Source: a virus
Taxonomy: Duplodnaviria > Caudoviricetes
DNA length: 64,000 nt
Virus record (IMG/VR): IMGVR_UViG_3300036770_002726
Span: 541-64,540 of that record
Strand: one strand, 5' to 3'
Notes under the pieces: model-generated
What the model was told of the DNA's origin: nothing
The model's database searches: none
What the model saw: the letters and a program-made list of their open reading frames with translations, nothing else
In this document: positions 2,911 through 59,292 of the stretch, piece by piece
Layout: each line of letters starts with the position of its first letter
Position numbering within the stretch: the stretch's first letter is position 1
Translations under genes and position numbers: made by a program

Positions 2911-3264
2911 ATGATTACAATTCAAATTTTAACTTGGTTCATTTTATCCTATGGACTTATGAACATTATGGTTTATGGAAGTATATTCCAAGGACTAAGA
3001 GATTTCTTCAAAAATATGGGTGATAATCCACATACCCCACTTAGATTTTTATTTGAGTTTATTAGTGGGGTATTATCCTGTCCGATGTGTTTCAGTACTT
3101 GGAGTGGGTTCTTTTTAGGTTTGGTAGTGTTTTCTCCAATACATACACTATTTGGAATACCTATATGGGGTTCTTGGTTCTTTGATGGTATTTTATCATC
3201 AGGAGCAGTATGGGCGATTAATGCAATTGTTGAATATTATGAAGAAAATAGACCATCTAAATGA
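2911..3264 (+). CDS. Membrane protein (DUF1360-like, CxxC)
   Basis: Hydrophobic segments; LSCPMCFSTW motif. Confidence 0.55.
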   Translation: MITIQILTWFILSYGLMNIMVYGSIFQGLRDFFKNMGDNPHTPLRFLFEFISGVLSCPMCFSTWSGFFLGLVVFSPIHTLFGIPIWGSWFFDGILSSGAVWAINAIVEYYEENRPSK

Positions 3265-3896
3265 AAAAAGTTTTAGAGTTATTTGCTGGTAGTCGTTCTA
3301 TTGGTAAAGCCGCAGAATCACTTGGAATGGAAGTATTTTCAGTTGATTGGGAACAATATGAGGGGATAAATTTATCAAAAGATATTGGTGAATTAACAAT
3401 GGAAGATGTTCCATTCACCCCTGATATTGTTTGGGCTTCACCAGATTGTACAACATATACAATTGCGGCAATATCACATCACAGAAACGGAACTGAACCC
3501 AAAAGTGAATATGCAAAAAAATGTGATATGGTTAATCAACATTTTATTTCATTGATAAAACAATGGTTAACCATTAATCCAAATATGGTATTCTTTATTG
3601 AAAATCCAAGGGGTATGTTAAGAAAGATGCCTTGGATGTTAGAATTCACAAGACATACAATATGGTATTGCAAATATGGTGATGAAAGAGCCAAACCAAC
3701 TGATATATGGACAAATAGTACAACTTGGATACCAAGACCTGTTTGCAAGAATGGTAATACTGAATGTCATCACCAACCAGCACCAAGGGGAAGTAAAACT
3801 GGAACTCAAGGTAGAAAAGGAAGTTATGAAAGAAGTAAAATACCTGAAAAACTTTGTATGGAAATATTAACGTCCGATGATAAACAATCGTTTTAA
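3261..3896 (+). CDS. DNA cytosine-C5 methyltransferase-like protein
   Basis: VLELFAG (motif I), SPDC (motif IV), IENP (motif VI). Confidence 0.75.
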   Translation: MKKVLELFAGSRSIGKAAESLGMEVFSVDWEQYEGINLSKDIGELTMEDVPFTPDIVWASPDCTTYTIAAISHHRNGTEPKSEYAKKCDMVNQHFISLIKQWLTINPNMVFFIENPRGMLRKMPWMLEFTRHTIWYCKYGDERAKPTDIWTNSTTWIPRPVCKNGNTECHHQPAPRGSKTGTQGRKGSYERSKIPEKLCMEILTSDDKQSF

Positions 3897-3958
3897 TGTT
3901 GTTTATCATTTCTTAGGTTTTGTCATTAATTTGTTTTACCTTTGTAAAAAATATAAAT

Positions 3959-4177
3959 ATGGAAAGTAAAGGACATTTTTGTTATGGATGTAATGAGTAT
4001 TTTCATGGCTCACGATTTGGTATTACAACACACAAAGGTTGTAAGGGTAAAAAGAGTTTAGGTATTTGTGTGGATAGTAAAGAATGGGGTGAATACCATC
4101 CATATAATTTAGAAGAAAAAAGTAAATGGGAGTTGATTCAAATTATACAAAAACTCTCAAAACAAATTAATGATTGA
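3959..4177 (+). CDS. Small Cys/His-containing hypothetical protein
   Basis: ATG 3959 follows a TACCTTTG -7 element at 3937-3944; CYGC motif. Confidence 0.5.
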   Translation: MESKGHFCYGCNEYFHGSRFGITTHKGCKGKKSLGICVDSKEWGEYHPYNLEEKSKWELIQIIQKLSKQIND

Positions 4178-4180
4178 ACC

Positions 4181-4268
4181 TAATGGTACTTGTGTATATG
4201 CCGTGCAAGTACAAAGATTTATTAACGGCTATAATTTTCAAAGCATGGCATATACACAATGTTATGCA
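4181..4268. repeat. attC-like hairpin (17-bp arms 4190-4206 / 4243-4259) ending in GTTATGCA
   Basis: TTGTGTATATGCCGTGC vs GCATGGCATATACACAA: 16/17 complementary. Confidence 0.75.
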
Positions 4269-4296
4269 GCGAAGCGAACAGTTTAAAATTTTTATT

Positions 4297-4482
4297 ATGG
4301 AAAGTTACTCAGAACGAATAGACAGAGAAATTGCGGAAACCGAAAAAATGTTTCCTGATGTTAAAAAAATAGTGGATGAAATTTCAAGGATTAAAAATAT
4401 GTCGAATATGGAATTTGACTATGACAGCGAAAGGAAACATTTGATGTACGAAGCTGTTAAGAAAATTTTAAATTGTGCATAA
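4297..4482 (+). CDS. Small hypothetical protein in a cassette-like unit
   Basis: Flanked by GTTATGCA (4261) and TGCATAAC (4476-4483); the stop codon lies inside TAAC. Confidence 0.6.
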   Translation: MESYSERIDREIAETEKMFPDVKKIVDEISRIKNMSNMEFDYDSERKHLMYEAVKKILNCA

Positions 4483-4571
4483 CTAGAATATATACGTAAG
4501 TCGCCATAACCGATTAGTACTCAATCACTTAAAAGACCCAACTATAAGGATTCACAAACAAAAACTGAATT

Positions 4572-5204
4572 ATGAAAGTATTGAATTTATATGCTGGTAT
4601 TGGTGGGAATAGAAAATATTGGGAAGATGTTGAAGTAACAGCGGTTGAATATAATGAAGAAATCGCAAATGTATATCAACATTTTTTCCCCAATGATAAT
4701 GTTATTGTTGATGATGCCCACGAATATCTTGCAAAGAATTGGAGAAACTTTGATTTTATATGGAGCAGTCCCCCTTGTCAAAGTCATAGCAAAGTTAGGA
4801 TGATGGCAAGCAAGGGTGGAAGTTATGATTCAGTAATGCCAGATATGAAATTATGGGCGGAGATAATCTTCTTACAAAACTTCACAAAGAATACCAATAT
4901 AAAGTTTGTTGTTGAGAATGTTAAACCCTATTATGAACCATTTGTTAAACCATCATTGAAATTGGGGAGACATTTATTTTGGACAAACTTTGATATTCCA
5001 ATTATTGATATTAAGGATGGTTTGACCCATAATGAGAGGGGAAGTTCAGAGAAGGGTTATTTTGATTTGAGGGTGTTTAAATTAAAACATAGGAAAGACC
5101 AAATTATTAGAAATTGTGTTGATCCCAATGTTGGAAAATATATATTTGACATTGTTAAAAAAAATAATTATAATGGAGAAAAAATTGGTGAGATTTCCCA
5201 ATGA
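4572..5204 (+). CDS. DNA cytosine-C5 methyltransferase
   Basis: LYAGIGG, SPPCQ and ENV motifs. Confidence 0.85.
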   Translation: MKVLNLYAGIGGNRKYWEDVEVTAVEYNEEIANVYQHFFPNDNVIVDDAHEYLAKNWRNFDFIWSSPPCQSHSKVRMMASKGGSYDSVMPDMKLWAEIIFLQNFTKNTNIKFVVENVKPYYEPFVKPSLKLGRHLFWTNFDIPIIDIKDGLTHNERGSSEKGYFDLRVFKLKHRKDQIIRNCVDPNVGKYIFDIVKKNNYNGEKIGEISQ

Positions 5205-5748: not shown

Positions 5749-6207
5749 ATGGAAGATTTTGATTCATTAAATGAGAAACAATTGGAATCCCTTGAAAGGG
5801 GGCTCTCCGATTTAAAAAATAATAGAGTTATGACAAGTGATGAATTTTGGAAGGAATTGTTATCAAAAAAAGAACAACAAGAATTATTGGATGAGGTTTA
5901 TGAGAATTATTGTAAGTCATTTGAAAATCAAACACTAATTGAAGAATACTCTTTTGATACAGACCCAATGACTCAATTTATGTTCATCAACAAATGTAAA
6001 AACGACAAAGGATTCTCTGAAAAGTGGGGATTGAAAATTGAGGAACGAGAGTTGAGTGAACTAGAGAGAATGAATATAGGTAAGAGTAAAGGAATGTGGA
6101 AAGAGTTTCAATTTGGCAATGTTCACGAACCATGTAATGAAAGAGGAATACCCACCAAACTAATCACAATAAAATACAACGATAAAACAATAGAAAGTTA
6201 TGAATAA
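5749..6207 (+). CDS. ThyA-insert-related mini-protein, copy 1 (extra N-terminal segment)
   Basis: QQELLDEVYENY...FINKCK...FSEKWGLKIEERELS...IPTKLITI..KTIESYE. Confidence 0.75.
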   Translation: MEDFDSLNEKQLESLERGLSDLKNNRVMTSDEFWKELLSKKEQQELLDEVYENYCKSFENQTLIEEYSFDTDPMTQFMFINKCKNDKGFSEKWGLKIEERELSELERMNIGKSKGMWKEFQFGNVHEPCNERGIPTKLITIKYNDKTIESYE

Positions 6208-6583
6208 CGAACAACAAGAATTATTGGATGAGGTTTATGAGAATTATAAAAAGGAAATCCTTCGGCAAAGGAAAATTCAGAGAGAAAAAGTTCAAAAATT
6301 GAGAAGTCAAGGTAAACGATTAAAGGTTTCTTTGATTGAGTTATTAACAAAAGAAGACTTCATCGACAAATGTAAAACCGATTCTAAGTTCTCTGAAAAG
6401 TGGGGATTAACCATTGAAGAACGAGAGTTGAGTTTGGAAGAGAGAGCAAAATTATACGAACAGAAAACAAATGTAGACACTAATTTCTTTCCTGTTCTTA
6501 GAGAAACATTAAATTTTCACAATATCCCAACCCGACTAATCACAATAACATATCACGATAAAACAATAAAAAGTTATGAATAA
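6200..6583 (+). CDS. ThyA-insert-related mini-protein, copy 2
   Basis: Paralog of 5749 and 6819; RELSLEER...NIPTR shared with ThyA. Confidence 0.8.
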   Translation: MNNEQQELLDEVYENYKKEILRQRKIQREKVQKLRSQGKRLKVSLIELLTKEDFIDKCKTDSKFSEKWGLTIEERELSLEERAKLYEQKTNVDTNFFPVLRETLNFHNIPTRLITITYHDKTIKSYE

Positions 6584-6812
6584 AGAAATTCCTGTAAAAT
6601 ACAATGGTGAGATTGTTGGATACACAACAGATGAAGGAAAGACCATTCAATTTAATGATAGTGATGCCTCAAAAAAGGTAAACGAAATGCTTAATCAAAA
6701 ACAAACGGTGTGGGTTTCATCAAGAGCAATTGGTGAAATTAAAAGTGACAACACTGTTGAATTAAATGAAATTAAATCATACGATATATCACACTTTGGA
6801 AACAAACAATAG
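6576..6812 (+). CDS. Hypothetical protein between junction repeats
   Basis: Starts MNKE inside one repeat and ends at the next; WVSSRAIG motif. Confidence 0.65.
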   Translation: MNKEIPVKYNGEIVGYTTDEGKTIQFNDSDASKKVNEMLNQKQTVWVSSRAIGEIKSDNTVELNEIKSYDISHFGNKQ

Positions 6813-6818
6813 AAAGTT

Positions 6819-7295
6819 ATGAATAAAGAACAACAAGAATTATTGGATGCAGCATACGAGAATTACACGAAAACTTTGGTAGGTTCTATTACTTTCTCGG
6901 AAAGAGAAAAAAATTTCAAATCAAATGGGATTGAATTTAACTCAGGTTATCCAAATTATACCCACTATACACAAGAAGAATTCATCAATAAATGTAAAAC
7001 TGAGGATGCACTATCCTTAAAGTGGAGAGAAGAATATAGAAACCTCCAATATGGCTCCAAAGAAGAAATAGAACACTTAAGTAAACATTATACATCCAAT
7101 ACAGAGTTCTCTAAAAAGTGGAGATTAAAGATTGAAGAACGAGAGTTGAGTTTGGAAGAGAGAGCAACAATTTGGGATAATACACATAATCCAGCAGGTA
7201 ACATATTCACACATAACCAATATGACGAGAATAATATACCTAAACGAGCAATCTCATTAAGATACAACCATAAAACAATAACGAGTTATGAATGA
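6819..7295 (+). CDS. ThyA-insert-related mini-protein, copy 3
   Basis: TQEEFINKCK...RELSLEER...NIPKRAISL, closest to ThyA NIPIRAISL. Confidence 0.8.
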   Translation: MNKEQQELLDAAYENYTKTLVGSITFSEREKNFKSNGIEFNSGYPNYTHYTQEEFINKCKTEDALSLKWREEYRNLQYGSKEEIEHLSKHYTSNTEFSKKWRLKIEERELSLEERATIWDNTHNPAGNIFTHNQYDENNIPKRAISLRYNHKTITSYE

Positions 7296-7527
7296 AGAAT
7301 TTTCACCAAAAAGAAGCCTGTCTGACCGATATTCAATTGAAAGTATGGCTAAGTCCCAGGGACTTTCAGTAGAAGAATTTCAAACCAGCATTAAAGAAGA
7401 ATTTAAAATAAAGAACGACTTAATTCAAAAGTACTTAGATAAAGGTTATACTCAAGAGCAAGCCGAAACCACTGCACTCAGAATACTGTATATTCCATCG
7501 TTCGGAGGAGGAACCTTTAAAGATTAA
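7288..7527 (+). CDS. Hypothetical protein between junction repeats
   Basis: MNEE start inside a repeat variant. Confidence 0.6.
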   Translation: MNEEFSPKRSLSDRYSIESMAKSQGLSVEEFQTSIKEEFKIKNDLIQKYLDKGYTQEQAETTALRILYIPSFGGGTFKD

Positions 7528-7540
7528 ACAATAGAAAGTT

Positions 7541-8011
7541 ATGAATAAAGAAAAATACATAGGTCTCATCTTAGATGAAAGAAATGACCATTATACTATT
7601 GGTTATAGAGAAACCACCGATTTTGAAACTTTAAAAAAGTGGAAGGAAGAAATGTTAGAATGTTCTAACGTTGAAGATTGTAAAATACTAAAAGTTGAAG
7701 AGATAGAAAGAGAGAAACTTGACATAGAACATAATGTTGTTAATAAACAATCACTCTACTCAGAAATTGAAACACTTATTATTAAGTGGAATATTGATGG
7801 AACTAAAACAGCAGGTTCTCTCACTAGAGATATAATGAAATTACTAAATGTCACATTAAAAAATAAAGCAAAAGAATCAGCAGAATATAAAAAAATCTTC
7901 AAGGAAATCAAACCAAATAGGCTGATAAGTACTGAATACGGTTCAGGAATAATTGATTCTCAAACAGGTGAAGTTACAATTACACCATATCCAACAATAA
8001 AAGACTTATAA
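7541..8011 (+). CDS. Hypothetical protein
   Basis: MNKE start inside an exact junction repeat. Confidence 0.65.
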   Translation: MNKEKYIGLILDERNDHYTIGYRETTDFETLKKWKEEMLECSNVEDCKILKVEEIEREKLDIEHNVVNKQSLYSEIETLIIKWNIDGTKTAGSLTRDIMKLLNVTLKNKAKESAEYKKIFKEIKPNRLISTEYGSGIIDSQTGEVTITPYPTIKDL

Positions 8012-10560: not shown

Positions 10561-11397
10561 ATGAAATACATTTATGGGATAATAAAGGAATATAAGTTTT
10601 CTTTATTAATGATATACTTTTATATATTCATAGCTCAACTATTGTTTTTAGTTGAGCCTTTTATTCTAGGAAAAGCAATTGATGGATTGTTGAATAAAAA
10701 CTATGTTTGGTTATTTGTATTCTTGATTATAGAATTATTACATAATTTTTTTATGTATAGAAGAATGGTATTTGACACCAAGATATATACCAAAATTTAT
10801 AATGATTTAATTTTTAAATTCTTAAAGAATAATAAAGATGCTGACACCTCAGTTAAAGTTGCAAGAACCGATTTATCCAACTATGTTATAAATTTCTTGG
10901 AACATGGACTTTATTATTTCTTATGGTCATTTATGAGTTTATTTGGTAGTTTATTTTTTATATTCTATCAGAGTTGGATTACAGGTTTAATTGCAATGTG
11001 TTGTATCTTACCAATCATAATAATTGTTTATATTTTTTATAGTAAGATTGACCAGGTTACAAAAGTTGAACATACCCACTACGAACAAAAAACTCGTGCA
11101 ATGGAATCAAATGACGATGAAGTAATTGAGACATTTTATAAACGTAGAGCAAGAGTAATAATATTACAATCAACATTACAAGGTAGAAATTGGGCATCAT
11201 TGAATATAACCAAAAGTATATTCTTGGTGGGATCTTTAATAATATTTACAAACTTCAATTTCCAAATGACTCAAGGTCAGGCAATATCAATGTATGCTTA
11301 TATCAGCCAATTCTTAAATTCATTGATGTCATTTCCTATTGGTATGGAAGTATTCTCAAGAATGAAAGATATTATTAAAAGAGTAAAAACAGAATGA
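10561..11397 (+). CDS. ABC-transporter six-TM-domain-like membrane protein (no ATPase domain)
   Basis: About six hydrophobic helices; PFILGKAIDGLL as in ABC exporter TMDs. Confidence 0.65.
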   Translation: MKYIYGIIKEYKFSLLMIYFYIFIAQLLFLVEPFILGKAIDGLLNKNYVWLFVFLIIELLHNFFMYRRMVFDTKIYTKIYNDLIFKFLKNNKDADTSVKVARTDLSNYVINFLEHGLYYFLWSFMSLFGSLFFIFYQSWITGLIAMCCILPIIIIVYIFYSKIDQVTKVEHTHYEQKTRAMESNDDEVIETFYKRRARVIILQSTLQGRNWASLNITKSIFLVGSLIIFTNFNFQMTQGQAISMYAYISQFLNSLMSFPIGMEVFSRMKDIIKRVKTE

Positions 11398-11630
11398 AAA
11401 CCTACATTCACGTTAATCAACATCACATCCGTTCAAATAAAACAAAAGGAACGGATTTACCTGTTATAACAATCAAACAAGGTAAAAAGAACACCTATTG
11501 TAATGAGGTTGAAATATTGGGACCTAGTAAGATTATATATGGTGGTGAGGGATGTGATGCAAAACCAATCTTATCTTGTGGTGCAAGGGTGGTTATTGTA
11601 ACTGAAGCTGAGATTAATATTATTAAATGA
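11394..11630 (+). CDS. Conserved phage hypothetical protein
   Basis: IHVNQH.I..N...LSCGARV.I.T motif. Confidence 0.6.
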   Translation: MKTYIHVNQHHIRSNKTKGTDLPVITIKQGKKNTYCNEVEILGPSKIIYGGEGCDAKPILSCGARVVIVTEAEINIIK

Positions 11631-11695
11631 GATTTGACAATCCAAGTTTGATTTTCTATATTATCTTAACTTAACAATTTAAAATTTACAAGACA

Positions 11696-11956
11696 ATGAT
11701 AGTTTATGAATACACAATGAAGGGTAATGATAAACCCATCCATTATTTAACTCCATTTGAAAATATGGCCGAAACTGATTGTGATGATTGGATAATAATA
11801 TGGGAAGCTGAAGTTGCCCCTATTGAATTCCAAAATGATGAATCAAAGGAAAAAACAAAAGAATGTAAAGATGCTGGATATTCTTATTGTCAAGGTATTG
11901 GGTGGGTTAAACTTATTAATGAAATAAAAAAAGTTAATTTAAAGAAGGGACTATGA
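11696..11956 (+). CDS. Hypothetical protein
   Basis: ORF in operon context. Confidence 0.5.
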   Translation: MIVYEYTMKGNDKPIHYLTPFENMAETDCDDWIIIWEAEVAPIEFQNDESKEKTKECKDAGYSYCQGIGWVKLINEIKKVNLKKGL

Positions 11957-12171
11957 TGACACTTTTAAAACTCACAATCAATGATGAACCGATTTATATA
12001 AATCCAGGAATGATATTGTCATTAAGTCCAAGAGAAAATGGAACTGAAATAACAACGATGAATCCTAATGAATTCTATCACGTTGACCAAAATATTGAAA
12101 CAATAATTCAACATTTAAAAGCATATTCAATAACTAAACAAATAATTAATATTACAGATGGGAAAGGCTAA
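11953..12171 (+). CDS. Hypothetical protein (FlbD-like small beta protein)
   Basis: LT.N..PIYINP..I pattern. Confidence 0.45.
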   Translation: MMTLLKLTINDEPIYINPGMILSLSPRENGTEITTMNPNEFYHVDQNIETIIQHLKAYSITKQIINITDGKG

Positions 12172-12418
12172 AAAAGAACACAGGAAAAAAGTCGCAAAAA
12201 GAAATGAAAAAATTGCTGCAGAAAAGAAAAAATTCCAAAAACAATACACACAATTGTTGGAACAAAAATTAAAAGAATATCAAGCAAAATTAACTGAAAA
12301 CGAACAATTGGAAAACGAATTGAAAGTTACCCTAGGTGGACAAGAACTTGGATTTTCAGTTGTTGACCCAAGTGAATTGGAAACCAATACTGAACCTGAA
12401 TCACAAAATGAAAATTGA
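12158..12418 (+). CDS. Basic coiled-coil hypothetical protein
   Basis: Lys-rich N-terminus. Confidence 0.55.
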   Translation: MGKAKKEHRKKVAKRNEKIAAEKKKFQKQYTQLLEQKLKEYQAKLTENEQLENELKVTLGGQELGFSVVDPSELETNTEPESQNEN

Positions 12419-12581
12419 ATTTGATAATTGTCCAAAATGTGGGTCTGAAATAAAACGAGAGGACAATTCTCTTCACGTATGGGAAATGGAGTATCAATGT
12501 GGACTTACAATGGTGGGTGCTATTGATACTCAAACCCACGGAGATGAAATTGAAATAATTTCTGAGTGTTCTAAAAATTAA
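12408..12581 (+). CDS. Small Zn-ribbon protein
   Basis: CPKCG...YQCG. Confidence 0.5.
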   Translation: MKIEFDNCPKCGSEIKREDNSLHVWEMEYQCGLTMVGAIDTQTHGDEIEIISECSKN

Positions 12582-12586
12582 AACAA

Positions 12587-12850
12587 ATGGTAAATAGAAA
12601 ACTGAACGCCTTTTTTGCCTATGTGTTGTTAGCAGTAGTGTTTTCTTCTTGTGATGTAGAAACTAAATTCCCTAATAGCCAATCAAAATTTGTAGTAAAA
12701 AGAATTCAAACTAACAAAACAAAAGGAACTAGTCTTTACTTAGTCGAGCCTATTGATAAAATGGATTTGAATATGAAAGGAACTTGGTTTGTGGATAGCG
12801 TTGGTAGGTTCAATGCTGGCGATACGCTGTCTTTTCAACATTACCGCTAA
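12587..12850 (+). CDS. Putative lipoprotein in a cassette-like unit
   Basis: Hydrophobic signal + FSSC lipobox; GTTAGCAGTAGTG (12628) / CATTACCGCTAAC (12839) inverted repeat. Confidence 0.6.
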   Translation: MVNRKLNAFFAYVLLAVVFSSCDVETKFPNSQSKFVVKRIQTNKTKGTSLYLVEPIDKMDLNMKGTWFVDSVGRFNAGDTLSFQHYR

Positions 12851-12884
12851 CTAGAATATATACACACCTCAATACAACTCACCC
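12848..12884 (+). repeat. 37-bp direct repeat TAACTARAATATATACACACCTCAAWACAACTCACCC, copy 1
   Basis: 35/37 identical to 13430-13466; first 16 nt also at 4480-4495. Confidence 0.9.
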
Positions 12885-12898
12885 GCAAAAAATATAAT

Positions 12899-13093
12899 AT
12901 GAAAAAAGATAATGTTTATTTTGAAAAACAAGAAAAGAAAAATTCATTATTAAATAATGAGTTTAAATTTAGACATATAAATAATATGCTTGGTGAAGAT
13001 GATTTCTTAAAGACCTATTTTTCTTTTCAGATAAAATTGAAAAAAGAATTATATGCTGATTATAAAAGAAATTCAAAATCAAAAATAAATTAA
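12899..13093 (+). CDS. Hypothetical protein
   Basis: ORF only. Confidence 0.4.
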   Translation: MKKDNVYFEKQEKKNSLLNNEFKFRHINNMLGEDDFLKTYFSFQIKLKKELYADYKRNSKSKIN

Positions 13094-13139
13094 TTATAAT
13101 GGTTGCAAATAAACACAGTATTAAATTAATTTTAAAAAT

Positions 13140-13367
13140 ATGAAAACAGTAGAATTTAGACAAGAAGATTTAGTTAATGTGAATGAATTAACTGAACAAA
13201 GAAACGACAAAATTGAACATTTAGTTGAAGTTTTAAAAGTAAATGATAGTATAACAGAAAAGAAATCTTCTGAATTGCTACAAGATATTTTTAAAATTAA
13301 TTCACAACTTAAATTAGAAGAAGATAAACTAATTGTTAAAACACTAACTGACAACGGAGCAATGTAA
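13140..13367 (+). CDS. Hypothetical protein enclosed by 18-bp inverted arms
   Basis: Arms 13106-13123 and 13365-13382 are 17/18 complementary. Confidence 0.55.
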   Translation: MKTVEFRQEDLVNVNELTEQRNDKIEHLVEVLKVNDSITEKKSSELLQDIFKINSQLKLEEDKLIVKTLTDNGAM

Positions 13368-13429
13368 TATTGTGTTTATTTGTTGTTATGTTTAACGAAG
13401 TGTAGTTGTGAGGAACGAACAATTAAACA

Positions 13430-13466
13430 TAACTAAAATATATACACACCTCAAAACAACTCACCC
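13430..13466 (+). repeat. 37-bp direct repeat, copy 2
   Basis: See 12848; preceded by the perfect inverted repeat GTTATGTTTAA/TTAAACATAAC. Confidence 0.9.
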
Positions 13467-13490
13467 CCAAAATCAATTAAAAAATTCACA

Positions 13491-15860
13491 ATGGATTTAT
13501 TCAATCCACCAATAGAATACAATTACAATTATATGATTAAAGATATAGATTTTACCAAGTTTGATAATCCATACATCCAGGTAATATGGGAAGATTATGC
13601 TGAAAACTTTACACAAGAAAAAATAAAGAGCATCAAACATTACTTCCAAAAAAAATACAATTCAACCAATGTTAATGTAATTACCAAAACAAAAATATCA
13701 GAAACAACCAATCACTCGGTTGATGTTTCCTTTAATATCTTGGATAAAAATTATCAATATGAATTGGTAAAATCATATCTCGATTCCAAAAATCAAAATC
13801 AATTATCGGATGAAATCTTTAATCTAGATAGAATTGTTGATAATAGATTATTGACAGATGAAGATATTACCCCATTCAAAAAATGGTATATCAAAAATAT
13901 TGAATTCTCCAATTTCTTATCTTATGGACAAAATCAAAAAATAGATTTTGAAAAATGTAATGGAATATCGGTTGTTGAATCAGACCCACCAAATTTTGGT
14001 GGAAAGACAGTTTTAACCGTTGACCTATTGTTATTCCTATTCTTCAATGAAACCACCAAGACAACAAAAGCTGAAGAAATCTTTAATAGATTCTCAACTC
14101 AAGATAAAGTCCACGTAAAAGGTGAAATTATCATTGATGGGGATGAATATGTTATCATTAGAAACATTGAAAGAAAGAAGAAGAAAGATGATACCTGGAA
14201 TGTAAAAACCGAATTGGATTTTTATAAGAAATTATCCGATGGGTCATTACAAAACTTCACTGGTGAACAAAGGAGAGAAACAGAGAATTTCATCAAAACA
14301 TCAATTGGAACAAAAGATGATTTCTTGATGACAATCTTAACAACAGCAACAAATCTTGAAGATTTGATTGACTCCAAACCAACAGCAAGAGGTCAAGTAT
14401 TATCAAAATTTATGGGGTTGGACTTTCTCAAAAAGAAAGAAGAACTTGCAAAAGAAATATATTCTGACTTCTCAAAATCAATGTTGTCAAATGTATATTC
14501 TAGTGAGAAATTGAAATCAGATAATGATGGTTATAATTCAAGAATCCAAGAATTAACCACAGATAATATAACCCAACAAAACAATCTTATTGATGTTCAA
14601 AACAGAATAATCAAAGGACAAGAATATAGAGATGGATTATTAAAATCCAAACACACGGATATTGATGTTGAAATCTCAAATATTGTTCCTGAACGTGTTG
14701 AAAGTGAAATCATCGGAATAAAAACCCAAAAACAAAGTGTTGAAAGACAATTAAAAGAACTTAAAGTAGTTGAACCTACAGAGTTTTACTCGGAACAAGA
14801 ACACGATTGGATAAAAGATGAACACAAACTATACTACAAAAAGATTGTTCAAGTTGAACAAACAATCAATTCGATTGAAGAACTAAAGTCTTCAGTTGAT
14901 GGGGGAATTAAATGTGAACATTGTGGAATTGAATTAATAACCGCATCAATAACTCAAAACAAGATAGCAGAACTTGACTATTATAATAGTCAAAAAGTCG
15001 AATTTGAGGGGTTAATGTCTAATATAATAGACAGAGAAGCTAAGTATGTTCTATTGAAAAAAGAATTTGATGAGTATGAGAAAAACAAACTTATCAAAGA
15101 AAAATATGAGCTTACAATTGAGGGTTATGAGATGAAAATCAAAGGGTTGGAAGATAAGTTGGAAAAATTCAATTTGTTACAGGATAAAATATCCACCAAT
15201 AACAAAATTGAAACCCAACTTATCAAAGCCAATCTGAGAATTGATGAATTGGATAGGGAAAAAGTATCTGTACAAAGAATCATTGATTCTAACAATTATC
15301 AAATTGAAAGTCTGAAAGATAAGATTAAAGATAATCTTCAAAAGATTGAAAAAATTAAGGAAGAATCTGAAAAAGAAAAAATATATAAGTTATATTTGGA
15401 AATCTTTGGAAAGAATGGAATATCTAAGACAATAATGAAAACAATGATTCCAATGTTGAATTCTGAGTTACAGAGGTTGTTGGAAGATAGTTGTCATTTT
15501 AGATTGGAGATTAATATTAATGATAAGAATGAGGTTGAATTTTTAATGATTGATAATAATACCCAAGTTGAGAAACTTATGTCATCAGGATCGGGTTATG
15601 AGAGAACCATAGCATCATTAGCATTGAGAGCGGTGTTGAGTAAGATTAGTTCATTACCAAAACCTAATATCATAGTGTTTGACGAGGTGTTTGGAAAGAT
15701 ATCAAATGAGAATTTGGATATGGTTGGTGAATTTTTTATTAAAATCAAGAACTATTTTGAAAAGATATTCGTTATTACCCATAATCCACTTGTAAGTAAT
15801 TGGGCGGACAATGTGGTTAAAATATCTAAAGAAAACAATATTAGTAACGTAAAACAATAA
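13491..15860 (+). CDS. SbcC/Rad50-like SMC ATPase (recombination nuclease subunit)
   Basis: NFLSYG, Walker A NFGGKT, coiled coil with CEHC zinc hook, SGSGYE signature, Walker B IVFDEVFG, ITHN H-loop. Confidence 0.92.
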   Translation: MDLFNPPIEYNYNYMIKDIDFTKFDNPYIQVIWEDYAENFTQEKIKSIKHYFQKKYNSTNVNVITKTKISETTNHSVDVSFNILDKNYQYELVKSYLDSKNQNQLSDEIFNLDRIVDNRLLTDEDITPFKKWYIKNIEFSNFLSYGQNQKIDFEKCNGISVVESDPPNFGGKTVLTVDLLLFLFFNETTKTTKAEEIFNRFSTQDKVHVKGEIIIDGDEYVIIRNIERKKKKDDTWNVKTELDFYKKLSDGSLQNFTGEQRRETENFIKTSIGTKDDFLMTILTTATNLEDLIDSKPTARGQVLSKFMGLDFLKKKEELAKEIYSDFSKSMLSNVYSSEKLKSDNDGYNSRIQELTTDNITQQNNLIDVQNRIIKGQEYRDGLLKSKHTDIDVEISNIVPERVESEIIGIKTQKQSVERQLKELKVVEPTEFYSEQEHDWIKDEHKLYYKKIVQVEQTINSIEELKSSVDGGIKCEHCGIELITASITQNKIAELDYYNSQKVEFEGLMSNIIDREAKYVLLKKEFDEYEKNKLIKEKYELTIEGYEMKIKGLEDKLEKFNLLQDKISTNNKIETQLIKANLRIDELDREKVSVQRIIDSNNYQIESLKDKIKDNLQKIEKIKEESEKEKIYKLYLEIFGKNGISKTIMKTMIPMLNSELQRLLEDSCHFRLEININDKNEVEFLMIDNNTQVEKLMSSGSGYERTIASLALRAVLSKISSLPKPNIIVFDEVFGKISNENLDMVGEFFIKIKNYFEKIFVITHNPLVSNWADNVVKISKENNISNVKQ

Positions 15861-15867
15861 AAAAATT

Positions 15868-18303
15868 ATGAGAAATTTAACAGGTCAAACCATAACACAA
15901 CTAACATTATCAAAAGATGAAATGGATGTTAATAGTAGTTACAGACAATTCATTTCAACAAAAATACCTGATATGGTATTTACATCACCATTCAAATGTG
16001 ATGGTTATGGTGTTTCACAAAAATACGGTATTAAATTATTGTGTGAATTCAAAAAAGATGTTGATTTAAGAGATAAATCTAATCAAGTTGATGTATTAAT
16101 ACAAGCAATCTATTATGTTAAAAAATTTGAACTTAATGGATTGATGTTACCAAATGTTTTACTATTGGCAGATAAAAACGAGTGGTTTTTAATCCATACA
16201 AATACAATATTTGAATACCTTTCTTTGGATATTAATTGGGAACTTGCGGCATCTTCAGCTTATAAACAAGTTGAGTTACACAATATGTTAATGCAAAATG
16301 ATAAAATAGCTCCTTTTATTTATTCTATTGACCAAATAGATTCAGTTGTTGAAAAAATAAAAGATTTAGCTAAAAATGTAACAAGATTAATACCAATAAC
16401 ACCATATAATATAACTGGGGTATTCAATTATTTCGAACAAAATGTATTAGGCAAACATATCTTGAATACAAATCAATTGGCTAATTTATTCGTACAATTG
16501 TTAATTAATCCTGATGAAAATTACTTACATCCTGTTGTTAAAAGAAAAACAATAGTTACTAAATCTTTTAACGAAATTAGTGTTAAATCTAAGGAAGCTT
16601 TTACATCTTTTTTTAGTCACTTTTCTCATAATTATACACCAACACAAAAAGAGGAATTAACTGCAGTTGTTGATAGATTAATTCAAGACATTACTAGAAG
16701 AAAACAAGGTGAGTTTTTTACACCTGAGTCTTGGGTAAAAAAAGCATATGAATACATTGCATCGGTATTTGGTGAGGATTGGAAAGAAAAGTATGTTGTT
16801 TGGGATCCAGCTTGGGGTACAGGTAATTTAACTAGGGGAATTAAATTTAAAGAACTATATGTCTCAACTTTAAATTACTCAGATATACAAACTGCTGAAC
16901 AAATGGGTTACAATCCTGAAGCTGTCAAGTTTCAATTTGATTTTTTGAATGATGAATATGATTTGTTACCGAAAGGTTTGAAAGATGCTATTGAAAGTGG
17001 AAAGAAAATTATTATTTTGATAAATCCACCATATGCTAGTTCAGCCAATTTTGGTGAAACTGATAAAAAAGACACATCTAAAACTAAACAAAATGAATTA
17101 ATGTTACTTGAAGGGTGGGGTAAGTCTGCTCAAAATTTATATGCACAATTCATTTTTGGTATTTGTAAATTGAAAGAAATAAACAATAACATAAATCTTT
17201 GTTTATTTTCACCTTCTCTTTTTTTAACTGGAACTTCTTTTAAAGAGTTTAGAAATAAATTTTTTAATTATTTTAATTACGAAAAAGGTTTTTTATTTAA
17301 AGCAAGTCATTTTTCTGATGTTGCTAGTGATTGGGGGATTAATTTCTTATGTTTTAGTAGTCAAAAAAATTACAACGAAATACTTTTAGATTTATTAGAT
17401 AGTAATGACGATTTTCAAATTGAAAAATTTGGTACAAAAGAATTGTATAATTTAGATAACCATAAACCTGCTTCATCTTGGGTAAGAGAGGAAATAAAAA
17501 AATTAAAAACCAATTCTGAACTACCACAAATGAAAAATAGTACTGAAGTTTATAGTGGTGAAAAACCAAATGGTTCGTATTTAGATAACTCATTGGGTTA
17601 TTTTTTGAATGGTGCTAATTGTATTGATAAAAACTCACAACAAGTAGCACTTTGGGGTGTCGGATTTTACAATGGGCATGGTTTATCTATATTACATAAT
17701 AATTTCAATAAATGTTGTAATTTGTTTACCGCCAGAAAAATTATTAATAAAACTTGGATAAACTCAAAAGATGAATATCTTTCACCTAACGAAGAACATC
17801 CAAAATATAATCAATTTAGTTACGATAGTATAGTTGTATCATTATTTCATATCCATTCCTACCAATCTAGTTTAAGACAGGTAATATACAAAGAAAAGTT
17901 ATGGGATATTAAGAATGAATTCTTTTGGATGTCAAAACAAAGAATGTTAAATTTAGCAAATGACAATCACTACACAGAGTTATACAATGATGCAAGAACT
18001 AGTAACAATAGATATGTTTATGAATTACTATTCGGTGAACAAGACATTTACAACAAACTTAGTCCTGATGCAAAACTTGTATTAGATAAAGCAATTGAAT
18101 TAGTTGAAAAATCTATGAAACAAAGACATCTTATGGCTGATGATACTAACCATTTGAATAGTTGGGATGCTGGATATGCACAACTTAAATTAGTTTGGAA
18201 AGAATATTTCCCAGATGAATTCAAAGAGTTTAGACAATTATACAAAAACTTGGAAGATAGAATGAGACCACTTGTTTATGAACTTGGATTTTTATTGAAA
18301 TAA
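15868..18303 (+). CDS. Type IIG-like restriction-modification fusion (putative nuclease + N6-adenine methyltransferase + TRD)
   Basis: N-terminal DG...EFK (PD-(D/E)xK-like); GEFFTP, WDPAWGTGNL (motif I), NPPY (motif IV); long C-terminal region. Confidence 0.75.
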   Translation: MRNLTGQTITQLTLSKDEMDVNSSYRQFISTKIPDMVFTSPFKCDGYGVSQKYGIKLLCEFKKDVDLRDKSNQVDVLIQAIYYVKKFELNGLMLPNVLLLADKNEWFLIHTNTIFEYLSLDINWELAASSAYKQVELHNMLMQNDKIAPFIYSIDQIDSVVEKIKDLAKNVTRLIPITPYNITGVFNYFEQNVLGKHILNTNQLANLFVQLLINPDENYLHPVVKRKTIVTKSFNEISVKSKEAFTSFFSHFSHNYTPTQKEELTAVVDRLIQDITRRKQGEFFTPESWVKKAYEYIASVFGEDWKEKYVVWDPAWGTGNLTRGIKFKELYVSTLNYSDIQTAEQMGYNPEAVKFQFDFLNDEYDLLPKGLKDAIESGKKIIILINPPYASSANFGETDKKDTSKTKQNELMLLEGWGKSAQNLYAQFIFGICKLKEINNNINLCLFSPSLFLTGTSFKEFRNKFFNYFNYEKGFLFKASHFSDVASDWGINFLCFSSQKNYNEILLDLLDSNDDFQIEKFGTKELYNLDNHKPASSWVREEIKKLKTNSELPQMKNSTEVYSGEKPNGSYLDNSLGYFLNGANCIDKNSQQVALWGVGFYNGHGLSILHNNFNKCCNLFTARKIINKTWINSKDEYLSPNEEHPKYNQFSYDSIVVSLFHIHSYQSSLRQVIYKEKLWDIKNEFFWMSKQRMLNLANDNHYTELYNDARTSNNRYVYELLFGEQDIYNKLSPDAKLVLDKAIELVEKSMKQRHLMADDTNHLNSWDAGYAQLKLVWKEYFPDEFKEFRQLYKNLEDRMRPLVYELGFLLK

Positions 18304-30942: not shown

Positions 30943-30986
30943 TCATCTTGGAACTAATGGTGGGGTGATATGGTTTATATAATTGA
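30943..30986 (+). promoter_or_regulatory. Class B 44-bp repeat (putative promoter)
   Basis: 42/44 identical to 31429-31472; related sequence at 46616. Confidence 0.65.
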
Positions 30987-31021
30987 TGATTGATTAAATA
31001 ATCTAATAAAATATTCAAAGT

Positions 31022-31293: not shown

Positions 31294-31428
31294 ATGAAAA
31301 TGTTTAATTTGGTATATCAAAATGTTAAATTGAATAGAAAGCAATTGACTGAAAAGGAGGTTGATATAGAAATTTCATCCATAATTATGAATTATGGCTA
31401 TAGACCCACCAAAGTTGAAATTTTTTAA
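31294..31428 (+). CDS. Small hypothetical protein (44 aa, not in ORF track)
   Basis: MKMFNLVYQNV...; lies between class A and class B repeats. Confidence 0.5.
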   Translation: MKMFNLVYQNVKLNRKQLTEKEVDIEISSIIMNYGYRPTKVEIF

Positions 31429-31472
31429 TCATCTTGGAACTAATGGTTGGGTGATGTGGTTTATATAATTGA
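31429..31472 (+). promoter_or_regulatory. Class B 44-bp repeat, copy 2
   Basis: TCATCTTGGAACTAATGGTTGGGTGATGTGGTTTATATAATTGA. Confidence 0.65.
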
Positions 31473-46570: not shown

Positions 46571-46681
46571 AATTAATCATAACCAAAATAAATCCCAATA
46601 AAAAAATAATCAAACTTGGAACTTAATGGTTGTTTGATTGGTTATATTAGTATTGAATCACTTAATAAAAAACACAATCAT

Positions 46682-49742: not shown

Positions 49743-52700
49743 ATGTCATTAATTAATCAAAAGAAAATAATACAATTATTAAAGGAATATAATGATAATT
49801 TTGGATTGTTGAATGAATCCAAGAAGGAAATCCTAATGAACAAATTTGGATTAAAAGAGGATGTTGCAAAAGTATTTGATGAAATAGGAAAAAAACTATC
49901 TATTTGGTTAGTTAGAGATGTTTACTTACGACATTACATTAATAAAGCTAAAACTTTAACTAGAGAAAAAGTACCTGAAGAAGTTTTTGAAACTTGGGCT
50001 AAAACTCAATTAAATCAAGAACCAATTAATTCATTGACTCAAGTATTGTCAAGAATTATGGATTATATTATACGTGAGTTAGGTGGAAATAAATCTTCAT
50101 TAGATAATTTAACACTTACTGAAATTATTGGTAAAGCCGATGAATGGCATAGAAGTTTAAATATAGGTAGTGGAAAAATAAATTATATTGAAAAAAATCC
50201 AATCATAATTGATTTTAGAGATGAAGATGGTAATGGATATTATTGGGTTGATTTAAGAACTAAAGACTCCAAAGAAGAATGTGAGAGAATGGGTCATTGT
50301 GGAAGAAGTAGTTTAGGTAGTTTATATTCATTAAGAAGTTATCAACAAAATGGAAAATACAAGGTTAATAAAAGCCATTTAACCGCATCAATTGGTGATA
50401 ATGGAAAATTATATCAATTAAAAGGTCCAAAAAATTCAAAACCAAGTGAAAAATATCATAGATATATTTTACCATTATTTGATGTTAAAGATGAGGATGA
50501 TGAATATTTGATTCAAGGGTTTGGAACAGAATACGCAACACAAGAGGATTTCAAATTGGAAGATTTACCAATGGAGACACTCAAAGATTTATATAGGGTA
50601 AGACCTAAAATATTCAAATCAAGAACATTACAAAGTAAAATGGCTGAATTTGGAATTGAAATAGAAGTTGACCCATTACCAACAGATTTTGATATATCTA
50701 TTCCATATGGGGAGATAACCAAATATATTCAAGGCGATGAATCTGGGTTTGATGTTGTCCGTAATTATTGGACTAAAACTATTTATTTATCTGAGATTAT
50801 TTTGTCTGGTGATTATGAATCATTGGAAAATTATATTGACATTCACGGCAATATTTACGCTGAGGATATTTTGGAAAAATATGTTAGTGAGGAACTCAAA
50901 GATTATATGAGACAAATTATTATGCTTGAAGTTCCAATTGACGAAAAATTAAAATTCGATCAAGCATCATTACCAGTATTAATTGAACACACTGAAGCAG
51001 GTAGTGATATTAGTACTGAAATATTTACAATATATAGGGAAGTATTAATTGAACCATTATATGAGGATTATTATCCAAGGTTAATTCAAACTCTTGAACA
51101 TTATGGTTCAATCATCAATGATACGCGACACGAAGAAATTAAAATAATGGGTGACCTTAGTCAAATAGTTGATATAAATAATCCTAATATTATTGAAATT
51201 TATAATAAAGTTGAAGAGGATTTTGATGAGTTTTATATGGATAGTGTTGTTGATATGATAGTGAAATCTGACCTACTTGAAAAACCTATTTGGGAAAAAC
51301 CTAGTGTAAGTGAAATAGAAATTAATGTTGAAATATTCAACAAGAGACTATATAGACAATTGAATAAATTGGAACAAATAATTAAAAAAGATTCAATGAA
51401 TGAAATTTATCATCAAAACAAGATTATAAAACTATTAAAAGAATATAACTCCAAACATAGTGATATTCTTACTGAGGCCAAATCAAAATTAGAAATACTA
51501 ATTAACAAAACTGGATTAAAACCTGAAACAGCTCAAATGTTTGATTCAATTGCTGGTGGGTTATCTACTTTTTTTGCTAATAAAGTGATTGATAGTTTTC
51601 AAAAACTTACTAGTATGCCCAAAGAACGTGTGGCAAAAGAATTAAATCCAACGTCACAATTAAGACAGGATTTAAATTCCATTATGGATTATTTTATTAA
51701 TGGATTAAATAGAAATAAATCATCTTTGGTTAATTTAACTTTTGAACAAATTAAAGAGAAATCCAAAGAATGGCACGATAGTTTAAATATTGGTGATAGT
51801 AAGATAAATTATATTGAAAACAATCCAATCCTAATTGATTTTAGAAATGAGAATGGTATAGGGTATTACTGGGCAGACCTACAAACGAATAATTCTACCG
51901 AAGAGTGTGAAAGGATGGGACATTGTGGAAGAAGTTCTTCAGGTAAATTATATTCATTAAGAAGTTATAGATTTACACCAGATGGAAAGTATAAGGTTAA
52001 TGATAGTCATTTAACAGCATCAATAAGTAATGATGGGATAATATACCAATTAAAAGGACCTAAGAACTCAAAACCAAAAGAAGAATATCATAAATTCATT
52101 TTACCTTTATTTGATTTACAAGATAAATATGATGATTATTTCATCAAAGGATTTGGAACTGAATATGCCTCACAACAAGATTTCAAATTAGAAGATTTAC
52201 CAATACAGACTCTCAAAGATTTGTATGAAATTAGACCTGAAATATTCAAATCAAGAGGGTTAAAAAGTAAAATGGCTGAATTGGGAATTGAAATAGAAGT
52301 TGAACCACTACCAACAGATTTTGATGTAGAAATAGAGTTTGAATATATAAATCATTATATAGATAACGATGAAGTAATCCACACACGAAAACAAAGAACT
52401 AATTATGGGTCAAATTATACCGTGAATACATACTTATCTGAGGCTCTTTTTAATCCCAACAAAATAGATGAATTAGATGAATGGATTGAAAGAGAATATT
52501 CATTACCTAGTTATGAACAACCATCATTAGAAAAAGTTTTAAAAGAAAATGTTTATGCTGGATTAAGGTCACATATTATAAGATTATTAAAAATGATGAA
52601 ACCAACTGAAGAACAATTAAAACAATTGGAAGAAGTTGAGAAGATTACAGAATGGAGTTTACAAATATCTAGACTAGCTCATTTAATGAGACAAATTGAT

Positions 52701-58570: not shown

Positions 58571-59125
58571 ATGAAACACAACATAATTAAAACAAACAAC
58601 TATCTACTTGTTGTAGATGATAGTCAGATTAAAATAGGAGATATTGTATTAGAAAAATACCTTGATGGTACAATAGGATTGGAACAGATTGATACTTTGA
58701 ATGACATTCATAATGTACTACATAAAAAAATCATAGCCCATTTGCCTTTAAATGGGGCTTCCACTCTCAATGGTGTAGATTTATTACCACCAATTGAAGA
58801 TGATGTTGAAAGGTTGGCAGAAGAGTATTCTAAAAATCATTCAATATATGAAACTGCACAAGACGATGTTTATCATGGATTTTTCCAAGGCTATAACAAA
58901 GCCAAAGCGAAGTATAAGTACACAGAGGAGGATATGAGAGAGGCCTTTAAAGCAGGACAATTAGATAAAGGTAATAATTGGTATGGAGGGGATTTTATTG
59001 AATTTATCAAATCCCTCCAACAACCAAAGATGCCTATTGGGTTTGAGTTTGAAACTAAAGATGAGTATTTAAAAAATGGAATTTTAATTAAAACTGAATG
59101 GGTGGGAAAATATATTTTTGATTAA
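58571..59125 (+). CDS. Mosaic hypothetical phage protein
   Basis: KIIAHLPL..., GYNKAK..YTEEDMR modules. Confidence 0.65.
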   Translation: MKHNIIKTNNYLLVVDDSQIKIGDIVLEKYLDGTIGLEQIDTLNDIHNVLHKKIIAHLPLNGASTLNGVDLLPPIEDDVERLAEEYSKNHSIYETAQDDVYHGFFQGYNKAKAKYKYTEEDMREAFKAGQLDKGNNWYGGDFIEFIKSLQQPKMPIGFEFETKDEYLKNGILIKTEWVGKYIFD

Positions 59126-59127
59126 AT

Positions 59128-59158
59128 TTTGAAATAAGAAAATCAAATTGTAATTTTG
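59128..59158 (+). promoter_or_regulatory. Bacteroidota-type promoter driving the tRNA-like RNAs
   Basis: TTTG-N19-TAATTTTG, ending 9 nt before the RNA. Confidence 0.8.
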
Positions 59159-59167
59159 TGACACAAT

Positions 59168-59292
59168 AGTCCTGTGGCGGAATTGGTAGACGCAATAGTA
59201 GACGATTCTCAGTCCTAACTACAAAGAGTAGCTAACTTTGAAAGTGGGTGTCAGGTTAATCTGAGATACAGGTTCGAATCCTGTCAGGACTA
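59168..59292 (+). ncRNA. tRNA-framed RNA 1 (Leu-type D arm, no canonical anticodon arm)
   Basis: Acceptor AGTCCTG/CAGGACT, D arm GCG-GAATTGGTAGA-CGC, T arm ACAGG-TTCGAAT-CCTGT, about 75-nt insert. Confidence 0.7.

Follow-up and report, generated by a model that had tools for sequence, protein, structure and literature searches.

Positions 12,587 to 13,466 of the viral DNA analysed here (Duplodnaviria; Caudoviricetes; 64,000 nucleotides (nt) at positions 541 to 64,540 of IMG/VR record IMGVR_UViG_3300036770_002726, hereafter the window) carry three small open reading frames (ORFs), one of them wholly inside the loop of a long hairpin, among direct and inverted repeats that end just before an SbcC-like gene. 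The question raised by this locus is whether the repeats are sites of gene capture, as was proposed by an earlier sequence-only reading that saw in them a phage-borne, dispersed, site-specific system. That proposal is supported by a family of related hairpins linked to a recombinase gene in other phages, by the identity of the terminal motif with the site beside that gene and by natural variation at the boundaries. We regard the locus, with a probability of about 0.7, as an outlying cluster of an integron-like gene-cassette system in large phages with Bacteroidota-type promoters.

The IMG/VR record (64,540 bases, of which the window covers 64,000) was estimated by CheckV to be 22% complete, and a search with the SbcC-like protein returned relatives among viral contigs, the largest of 322 kb, so that the window is evidently a fragment of a very large phage. 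The GC content of the window is 25-32% and 95 of 103 genes in a crude ORF call lie on the plus strand. Its intergenic regions contain TTTG...TAnnTTTG sequences, which we take to be the Bacteroidota promoter consensus. No DNA relative of window positions 11000-16000 was found in the 'phages' collection.

Hairpin sites, cassette ends and a shared terminal motif

The stem reported around ORF 13140 was recomputed and holds. Positions 13106-13123 pair with 13365-13382 at 17 of 18 positions with the ORF inside the loop, and a repeat search lengthened the stem to 22 nt at 91%, flanked by TAATGGTTG and TTGTTATG. The stem was kept in the minimum-energy fold of the single strand (z score -4.83, equalled by 0 of 100 shuffles). 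Within the loop, the leader and start codon of the ORF (13117-13141) are complementary at 22 of 25 positions to 13285-13309, an internal coding stretch for the invariant DIFKINSQ, and the minimum-energy fold forms this pair as a second stem inside the big hairpin; the effective loop in this model may be about 143 nt.

A protein search with ORF 13140 returned 16 proteins including the window's own, leaving 15 close relatives, and since second codon positions rarely differ among them (1 of 18-20 changes) the ORF is evidently a coding gene. Eleven metagenome loci encode a homologue, which lies within the loop at six of them, between two hairpins with inverted core-adjacent flanks (GTTATAAACAGTATTA...TAATATTGTTTATAAC) at three, with the right arm only at one and with neither arm at one. 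Nucleotide sharing between these loci and the window (blastn) was limited to a block from about 13083/13106 to 13373/13433. One locus (L174) was 97.4% identical to the window across 13089-13433 and unrelated elsewhere, the shared block ending exactly at CATAAC, and at another (L175) the unit adjoined homologues of window positions 63.7 kb and 3.9 kb and by all appearances occupies another place of a related genome. A peptide-pattern search of viral contigs found no relatives of ORF 13140 or ORF 12899, and the three small ORFs, with only below-threshold matches in Pfam and PHROGs, were assigned to no family.

Downstream of this hairpin, positions 13385-13395 and 13423-13433 are complementary at 11 of 11 positions with 27 nt between them. 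The sequence-only reading described this unit as an empty cassette; the unit was confirmed and recurs in L174 and in a contig of metagenome run X7, and the label was given up because 13089-13433 moves as one block, which makes a vacant cargo slot of the ORF 13140 cassette the better description. Taken singly, the fold of this unit is weak (z score -2.23, equalled by 11 of 200 shuffles).

The loci encoding an ORF 13140 homologue are rich in hairpins of the form (Y)ATAAC-GGTT-stem...stem'-TT-GTTAT(R), all on the gene strand, which fold with an outer stem of (T)ATAAC/GTTAT(A), a 3-nt bulge and a long variable inner stem; the boxes of locus L178 are the canonical GTTAGGC/GCCTAAC. The minimal form measures 48 nt and has an 11-nt loop, TCGTTTTAATG, that is invariant in 13 of 13 copies. 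Among 13 distinct short forms, 9 of the 12 inner-stem pairs change on both sides, and pairing was seen in 98.6% of cells, compared with 80.2% after shuffling (0 of 500 shuffles reached the observed value) and 41-60% when the partners were slid. Two G-T pairs are conserved (columns 13-53 and 18-52). Judged by boxes, folds and covariation, these are attC-type sites, that is, imperfect hairpins with ..AAC/GTT.. boxes and otherwise variable sequence.

The first pattern used, TAA(C/T)GGT...GTTA, misses a TAAC-GTCC subfamily and sites with changed 3' cores, and the hairpin counts are therefore minima. A short-loop scan of viral contigs gave at least 119 loci, and among the matches listed seven passed the stem test and four were clear members. 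In a distantly related viral contig of 122.6 kb (G005), TAACGGTT occurred 17 times forward and three times reverse, compared with control counts of 4 and 2, and the hairpins formed two arrays, with 27 on the plus strand and one on the minus strand in a relaxed scan. Rfam 15, applied to the window and nine loci (109 kb), gave three tRNA matches only and none on the hairpins.

Other classes of element were considered for the hairpins and rejected. Simple terminators were set aside as the ordinary GC-rich hairpins with T runs in the window look different, and miniature inverted-repeat transposable elements with target-site duplication as no such duplication was seen. Ends of the IS200/605 type (REP/RAYT kind) were rejected given that no TnpA was found and the 37-bp repeat described below is present; an HUH Y1 transposase (PF01797) was found in none of the nine virus records G000-G008, several of which are fragments.

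A second cluster in the window, at 3870-4495, reads as a two-cassette mini-array that ends in a copy of the terminal motif before a methyltransferase-like gene. Its first hairpin overlaps the end of the gene at 3261-3896, and the block 3868-3964, comprising this hairpin and a promoter-like TTTG...TAnnTTTG flank, recurs in five copies in G005 at 79-98% identity, where the core genes are only 66-78% identical. The first cassette is bounded by inverted flanks of 25/26 nt (3912-3937/4159-4184, 22 matching), of which the left holds a promoter-like TTTG...TACCTTTG. The start of the second, GTTATGCA, is complementary to its end, TGCATAAC.

Complementarity between the start and the end of a unit was also seen in the arrays. 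In 27 of 66 pairs of adjacent hairpins, the 3' flank of the first was complementary at 6 or more of 8 positions to the 5' flank of the second; random pairs reached this level in 258 of 5000 cases, and the two flanks of a single hairpin in 9 of 144. Such complementarity would follow if cassettes are closed into circles at the core. The window holds four such pairs of start and end (12628/12839, 13385/13423, 4261/4476 and 3912/4159). Of 117 starts of blocks shared among arrays, 46 had TAAC at the boundary (243 of 5000 for places drawn at random), and paired ends took the forms ...gaatataac^GTCCGATG and ...gaatataac^TAGATTAT (the caret marks the junction). Partners exchanging at TAAC share only about 4-12 nt (TAAC^GGTT.. 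against TAAC^TAGA..). Taken with the L174 and X7 blocks, these block starts place the probable exchange at TAA^C, read as G^TTA from the opposite strand, or directly beside it.

The pair reported around the lipoprotein-like ORF, 12628-12640 (GTTAGCAGTAGTG) against 12839-12851 (CATTACCGCTAAC), is indeed complementary at 11 of 13 positions. By our own arithmetic, made without a shuffle test, about ten GTTA/TAAC-anchored pairs of this kind are expected by chance in 64 kb, and the pair alone proves nothing; it is nevertheless taken as real because an 82%-identical lipoprotein gene in locus L356 sits within a recombinase-linked array. In L356 the same two boxes are complementary at 12 of 13 positions and a full hairpin adjoins each side, the start codon lying within the hairpin loop and the 3' arm and core box encoding the signal peptide. 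The corresponding remnant in the window falls in the signal-peptide coding part of the ORF and its 5' half is missing. The position of the unit was corrected on this comparison, in that the start of the lipoprotein ORF evidently falls within a hairpin loop, the window having lost the 5' half of that hairpin. The end box is followed by the next hairpin in L356 (TAAC^GGTTGAG) and by the terminal motif in the window (TAAC^TAGAAT).

The terminal motif, called docking site from here on, was reported as a 37-bp repeat with 35 of 37 positions identical (12848-12884 and 13430-13466) whose first 16 nt also end the unit at 4480. Both statements were reproduced, the 16-mer being exact at 4480, 12848 and 13430. 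A 30-mer of the repeat had two matches in the window against 0.00 expected and the 24-nt pattern ATTNNNNNTAACTANNATATATAC had three against 0.11; at three mismatches the 16-mer was not significant (10 found, 6.79 expected). Each of the three copies lies exactly at a cassette end and 15-90 nt before a start codon, adjoining the methyltransferase-like gene, ORF 12899 and sbcC, and none is beside a recombinase gene. In viral contigs, 82 loci with the 16-mer were set aside as chance by assumption, except for L092, a relative already known, and six matches to a 17-mer were rejected as lying in unrelated coding or other contexts.

A Xer-like recombinase gene and natural variation at the boundaries

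Proteins of family PF00589 adjoin the hairpins, directly after the first array of G005 (1.9e-37) and in G008 (6.1e-39). Relatives of this recombinase were found encoded in 96 viral stretches and 80 loci were kept, on phage contigs of 120-460 kb (up to 464 kb). Around these 80 loci, 122 hairpins lay upstream on the same strand (517 kb), five lay downstream (632 kb) and one was on the opposite strand; sbcC control loci had one and two hairpins in 958 kb. The recombinase gene is co-directional with the cassette ORFs and downstream of them, with a docking site 35-60 nt upstream. The docking motif was located within -160 to +40 of the start of the recombinase match at 57 of 76 loci, in the form ATTnnnnnTAAC^TA(1-5 nt)TAT(A/G)T, and some of these sites read TAACTATTATATATACACACCTAT, which is close to TAACTAGAATATATACACACCTCA of the window. 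In the related phages, as in an integron, the array stands beside a recombinase gene with an attI-type site between them, although the orientation differs from that of integrons.

A site matrix was trained on 49 unique recombinase-proximal sites from other phages only, none from the window. Its top three positions in the window were the three docking copies (30.5, 29.2 and 23.9 bits), followed by 9.0 bits, and maxima over 20 shuffles were 4.3-16.3 bits. The suggestion that the motif is a dedicated attI-like site is supported by this match and by the 57 of 76 loci. G005 holds the site once, at its recombinase gene, and the window holds it three times. A loose docking pattern also matches the reverse complement of the hairpin 3' sides (63 minus-strand background matches), and its fair background is the plus strand only, with 17 matches in 1.17 Mb.

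The recombinase of the related phages measures 266-268 aa and has Phage_int_SAM_4 and Phage_integrase domains. It was closest to XerA-type models and to PDB 4a8e and stayed under every curated cut-off: the best model, NF040815 (XerA/integron integrase), gave 184 bits against a cut-off of 220, and NCBIfam TIGR02249 gave 151 bits in two stretches against 265. Relatives at 31-40% identity are present in Cellulophaga and Polaribacter phages. When aligned to IntI4 (2a3v), residues 181-209 of the query (29 aa) stood opposite IntI4 residues 182-258 (77 aa), leaving the phage protein about 48 residues shorter. Because this recombinase is without the IntI-specific insert, the system is evidently not a classical integron. 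At locus L176, which has the ORF 13140 cassette, a 56-aa N-terminal recombinase remnant stands behind a docking-type site and appears to be a decayed recombinase copy.

Two relatives with 98% SbcC identity (L003 and L012, from contigs of 258 kb and 218 kb) match the window at 97% in two stretches, one reaching to 12864 and the other resuming at 13456. Between the lipoprotein stop ...CCGCTAAC and sbcC these contigs have a single, shortened copy of the motif. Relative to them the window has an extra 582-594 nt with ORF 12899, ORF 13140 and the vacant slot, placed between the 37-bp direct repeats; the BLAST gap covers 12865-13455 and its exact ends are ambiguous within the repeat. The 582 nt between the two TAAC junctions comprise docking copy 1, ORF 12899 and the ORF 13140 cassette. 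Two whole genes of the window are also absent from L003, at 10561-11397 (product ABC_membrane_3-like, Pfam 6.5e-15) and 15868-18303 (811 aa), and their junctions are gene boundaries with neither hairpin nor docking motif.

Contigs of four metagenome runs from four studies were compared in the same way, parts that they leave uncovered not being counted as evidence. Run X7 contained, in one contig of a lake metagenome, the cassette-less joint 12861 to 13456, and another X7 contig covers 13106-13433 only. Shorter joints from 12382 or 12329 to 13490 were present in X4, X7 and X8, as in the relatives with 86% identity, and contigs departed from the window sequence right after 12851 (X4) and after 12869 (X8). 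At the docking copy of the 3870-4495 cluster, one 86% relative (L009) has another cassette upstream, with a DPPY-type methylase motif recognized by eye; the downstream gene is absent from it, and motif and leader are kept at 91%. Comparison of occupied and empty sites showed gene content varying at these boundaries both in a near-identical phage and in metagenome contigs, so that the proposal passed the refuting condition that the sequence-only reading had set on this point. Among cultured relatives, the Polaribacter phages Freya_1 and Freya_10 agree at 99.9-100% identity and are set apart by an inserted multi-gene block of 4.9 kb, which lies just upstream of the integrase gene.

Proposed mechanism and competing explanations

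A cassette in the proposed system would consist of a folding hairpin site, usually one small ORF, and an end box ATTnnnnnTAAC complementary to its own start, and in the related phages rows of cassettes end at a docking site, TAAC^TA..TATATA.., before the Xer-like recombinase gene. The recombinase is predicted to cut and rejoin the DNA at TAA^C, equivalent to G^TTA in the opposite strand, or directly beside it, joining a hairpin, probably folded as a single strand, to the docking site, or joining two like sites; which strand would react is likewise a prediction. Cassettes would then move as circles with the predicted junction CATAAC^TAGAATATATAC. In segment 12587-13466 we read, in this order, a lipoprotein cassette that keeps half of its site, docking copy 1, ORF 12899, the ORF 13140 cassette with its empty slot, docking copy 2 and then sbcC. 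We interpret the 582-nt segment as a circle that came in, or could go out, via one crossover between two docking copies, and a crossover of docking site with docking site would leave the 37-bp direct repeat. The crossover behind the duplication may have been site-specific or homologous, as homologous recombination predicts the same product.

An extension of this scheme is more tentative, and we hold it at somewhat less than an even chance: docking copies would be seeded before core genes (sbcC and the methyltransferase-like gene), cassettes would dock at several places in the genome, the recombinase would possibly act in trans from elsewhere or from a co-infecting phage, the motif may be a portable promoter or leader, and loops would tolerate whole genes (240 nt).

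Several observations weigh against the cassette system. No recombinase gene is present in the window record, which is 22% complete, or in G000-G004, including the 86% relatives G001 (66% complete) and G002 (41%); none was found in G006 or G007 either, both fragments. The short-loop hairpin pattern is missing from G001-G004 as well. The recombinase of related phages lacks the IntI-specific extra segment in its alignment to IntI4, and the invariant loop of the short hairpins is something an integron-type site would not need. The cassette logic fits 27 of 66 adjacent hairpin pairs only. Block ends carried TAAC in 10 of 109 cases, against 243 of 5000 random places, and many blocks end at gene starts. 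Insertion of a hairpin at a docking site predicts no 37-bp duplication, and recombination between two docking sites or homologous recombination has to be invoked; the single motif copy in L003 is without 12 nt of the motif. Five other gene-sized indels distinguish the window from L003 within the same 14 kb and have no hairpin or docking sites. Finally, what was seen is natural presence and absence only, with no circles or recombination products, the metagenome contigs being uninformative on circles, transcript ends and strand.

Some of these points favour a different account, in which the hairpins serve for termination or processing and the motif as promoter or leader, general homologous recombination shuffles the genes and the recombinase merely edges a hyperplastic region. 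Regulatory cassettes of this kind are documented in T4-type phages, where stem-loop and promoter modules (PeSLs) flank ORFan genes in hyperplastic regions (PMC4122927, PMC2839356). Such modules occur repeatedly in these large virulent phages and coincide with the indels that separate close relatives, which is similar to the picture here. The 37-bp repeat around 582-594 nt is what one homologous crossover with a circle would produce, block 3868-3964 recurs in G005 despite the lower identity of the core genes, many shared blocks span from a hairpin to the next start codon, and the nearby indels need no special site. However, exchange of PeSLs is ascribed, in the accessible parts of those papers, to homologous recombination between conserved motifs of about 50 nt, and these parts mention neither a dedicated recombinase nor a fixed junction of 4 nt nor complementarity of cassette ends. 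The 4-12 nt shared at TAAC are too few for homologous exchange. The complementarity of a cassette start to its own end points to circles closed at a fixed point, the stems covary between fixed flanks, the end box ATTnnnnnTAAC precedes hairpins and docking site alike, and the bias of strand and side around the recombinase gene is extreme (122 : 5 : 1). We therefore consider regulatory cassettes shuffled by homologous recombination unlikely.

Distinctly less probable is an ordinary lysogeny integrase whose neighbouring motif is an attP site, with the hairpins acting only on RNA (stability, processing or translation control) and the motif copies in the window serving as promoter or leader. The integrase of the cultured relatives was taken by their authors, in the part of the article available, as a sign of a possible temperate lifestyle (PMC8776804). 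The location of all window copies shortly before start codons agrees with this account, and so do the two conserved G-T pairs, which form on the coding strand only, as in RNA. The sequence-only reading had itself raised an antisense promoter on the ground of a similar sequence near 49564; this sequence, AATATATACACA, does exist, on the plus strand at about 49605 in a divergent intergenic region, and is likewise cited in favour of a promoter or leader, but it is without TAAC and outside the ten best matrix positions. An attP site would however be single-copy, whereas the window has three copies, each at a cassette end; an insertion of 4.9 kb at the site distinguishes isolates of a single phage species; and cassette-end complementarity has no rationale at the level of RNA.

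Chance repeats in AT-rich DNA can be dismissed: the base composition, the loosened 16-mer, the vacant slot taken alone and relaxed 11/12 hairpin matches, which occur at the shuffle rate, would each allow them, but the units show covariation, turn up again in unrelated surroundings and are singled out by a matrix built from other genomes.

Integrons provide the standard example of recombination at DNA sites folded from a single strand, a reaction generally assumed to depend on a special IntI segment. The likeness of the phage system to them includes rows of mostly single-ORF, co-oriented cassettes, imperfect hairpin sites with fixed AAC/GTT cores and variable, covarying stems, complementarity of start and end box within a cassette, a separate docking site, double-stranded, that divides the array from a tyrosine recombinase gene, and junctions at the G^TT-equivalent position. 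Unlike in integrons, the recombinase of 266-268 aa is closest to the XerA type and is without the IntI segment of about 48 residues, and its gene is co-oriented with and downstream of the cassette ORFs rather than divergent. The short hairpins have an invariant loop, some cassettes come with a promoter-like flank of their own, the start of an ORF or a whole ORF lies within some of the loops, the carrier is a phage, and the window has three docking copies away from any recombinase gene. In integration of the CTX-phi type, a Xer-family enzyme acts on a single-strand hairpin that mimics a two-arm core site, and host XerCD puts the whole phage genome into the host dif site; here, by contrast, a phage-encoded enzyme would shuffle cassettes within phage genomes.

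Clusters of attC sites in phages have been detected by means of integron models and interpreted as parts of bacterial integrons that IntI1 can use, with mention of methyltransferase cassettes (Qi et al. 2023, PMC9892861); the accessible parts of that paper describe no phage-encoded Xer-like recombinase, docking site or gene-in-loop form. A literature search turned up no paper in which hairpin cassette arrays accompany a phage-encoded Xer-like recombinase, and the scattered docking-site copies and the whole gene inside a hairpin loop are new here.

The phage contigs show the grammar of hairpin sites, docking site and putative cassette circles, apparently run by a short Xer-like enzyme. If the proposed recombination chemistry holds, such gene capture arose or persisted outside IntI and would provide a mechanism by which the hyperplastic regions of phages exchange their small accessory genes so fast, among them methyltransferase-like and lipoprotein-like genes with a possible role in interactions between phage and host, as well as a compact new recombination system for study. 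The window adds evidence that docking sites can be copied elsewhere, by which a single platform would become genome-wide.

Feature coordinates and minor observations

Coordinates of the features in the window (positions of the 64,000-nt stretch)
Feature	Position	Strand	Description
Short-form hairpin	3870-3917	+	TAAC-GTCC, 12-nt stem, loop TCGTTTTAATG (3888-3898), stem, TT-CTTAG
Cassette with ORF 3959-4177 (72 aa)	3912-4184	+	ends ATTGAACCTAAT
Hairpin site	4181-4264	+	TAATGG, perfect 13-bp stem TTGTGTATATGCC/GGCATATACACAA, T-GTTATG; z score -3.10, 0 of 200 shuffles
ORF 4183 cassette	4183-4482	+	99 aa; ORF start in 5' flank of hairpin
Docking copy 0	4472-4495	+	cassette end ATTGTGCATAAC joined to motif TAGAATATATAC; 29.2 bits; upstream of methyltransferase-like gene 4572-5204
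Lipoprotein-like ORF	12587-12850	+	87 aa, ...VFSSC; cassette in L356 array
Hairpin remnant	12605-12640	+	3' arm and core-adjacent box GTTAGCAGTAGTG (12628-12640); by comparison with L356 1547-1680
Cassette end box	12839-12851	+	CATTACCGCTAAC, complementary to 12628-12640
Docking copy 1 and leader	12848-12884	+	left copy of 37-bp direct repeat; 30.5 bits
ORF 12899	12899-13093	+	64 aa, no family; within segment missing from L003/L012 and one X7 contig
Hairpin site, 241-nt loop	13097-13388	+	TAATGGTTG, arm 13106-13123, loop, arm 13365-13382, TT-GTTA
ORF 13140	13140-13367	+	75 aa, no family, wholly within hairpin loop
Vacant cargo slot	13385-13433	+	GTTATGTTTAA, 27 nt, TTAAACATAAC; moves with ORF 13140 hairpin
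Docking copy 2 and leader	13430-13466	+	right 37-bp copy; 23.9 bits; 25 nt before sbcC-like gene
SbcC/gp46-like ATPase gene	13491-15860	+	conserved core gene; query for finding relatives
Short-form hairpin	63707-63754	+	loop TCGTTTTAATG; solitary, intergenic; z score -3.26

Other repeated intergenic elements were seen in the window. The box ATATTTAT(A) recurs 15-30 nt before start codons (19914, 28540, 35234, 37303, 41965, 45640, 48338 and 49565) and may be a second promoter class. The motif CTTGGAACTAATGGTKGGGTGATRTGGTTTATATAATTGA is repeated upstream of small genes at about 30950-30990, 31425-31465 and 46610-46650, and its TAATGGTTGGGT part looks like the 5' side of the hairpin sites.

Region 59160-59410 holds a promoter-like TTTG...TAATTTTG followed by two stretches resembling tRNA ends, GTCCTGTGGCGGAATTGGTAGACGC ... 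GGTTCGAATCCTGTCAGGAC, with long inserts between them; no tRNA was found there at the Rfam gathering score, nor by ARAGORN in 58900-59600. A strong terminator-like hairpin at 2585-2629 is followed by a stretch without a called gene (2564-2910, 347 nt) that has an open frame without ATG. In three relatives (L068, L070 and L072) the SbcC-like match begins only at residue 173, with coding sequence unrelated to it in front, and the gene may have received an insertion or been split. Several families of paralogous small genes, arranged in tandem and with conserved gene starts, are located at 5750-7550, 50100-54000 and 60000-61800.

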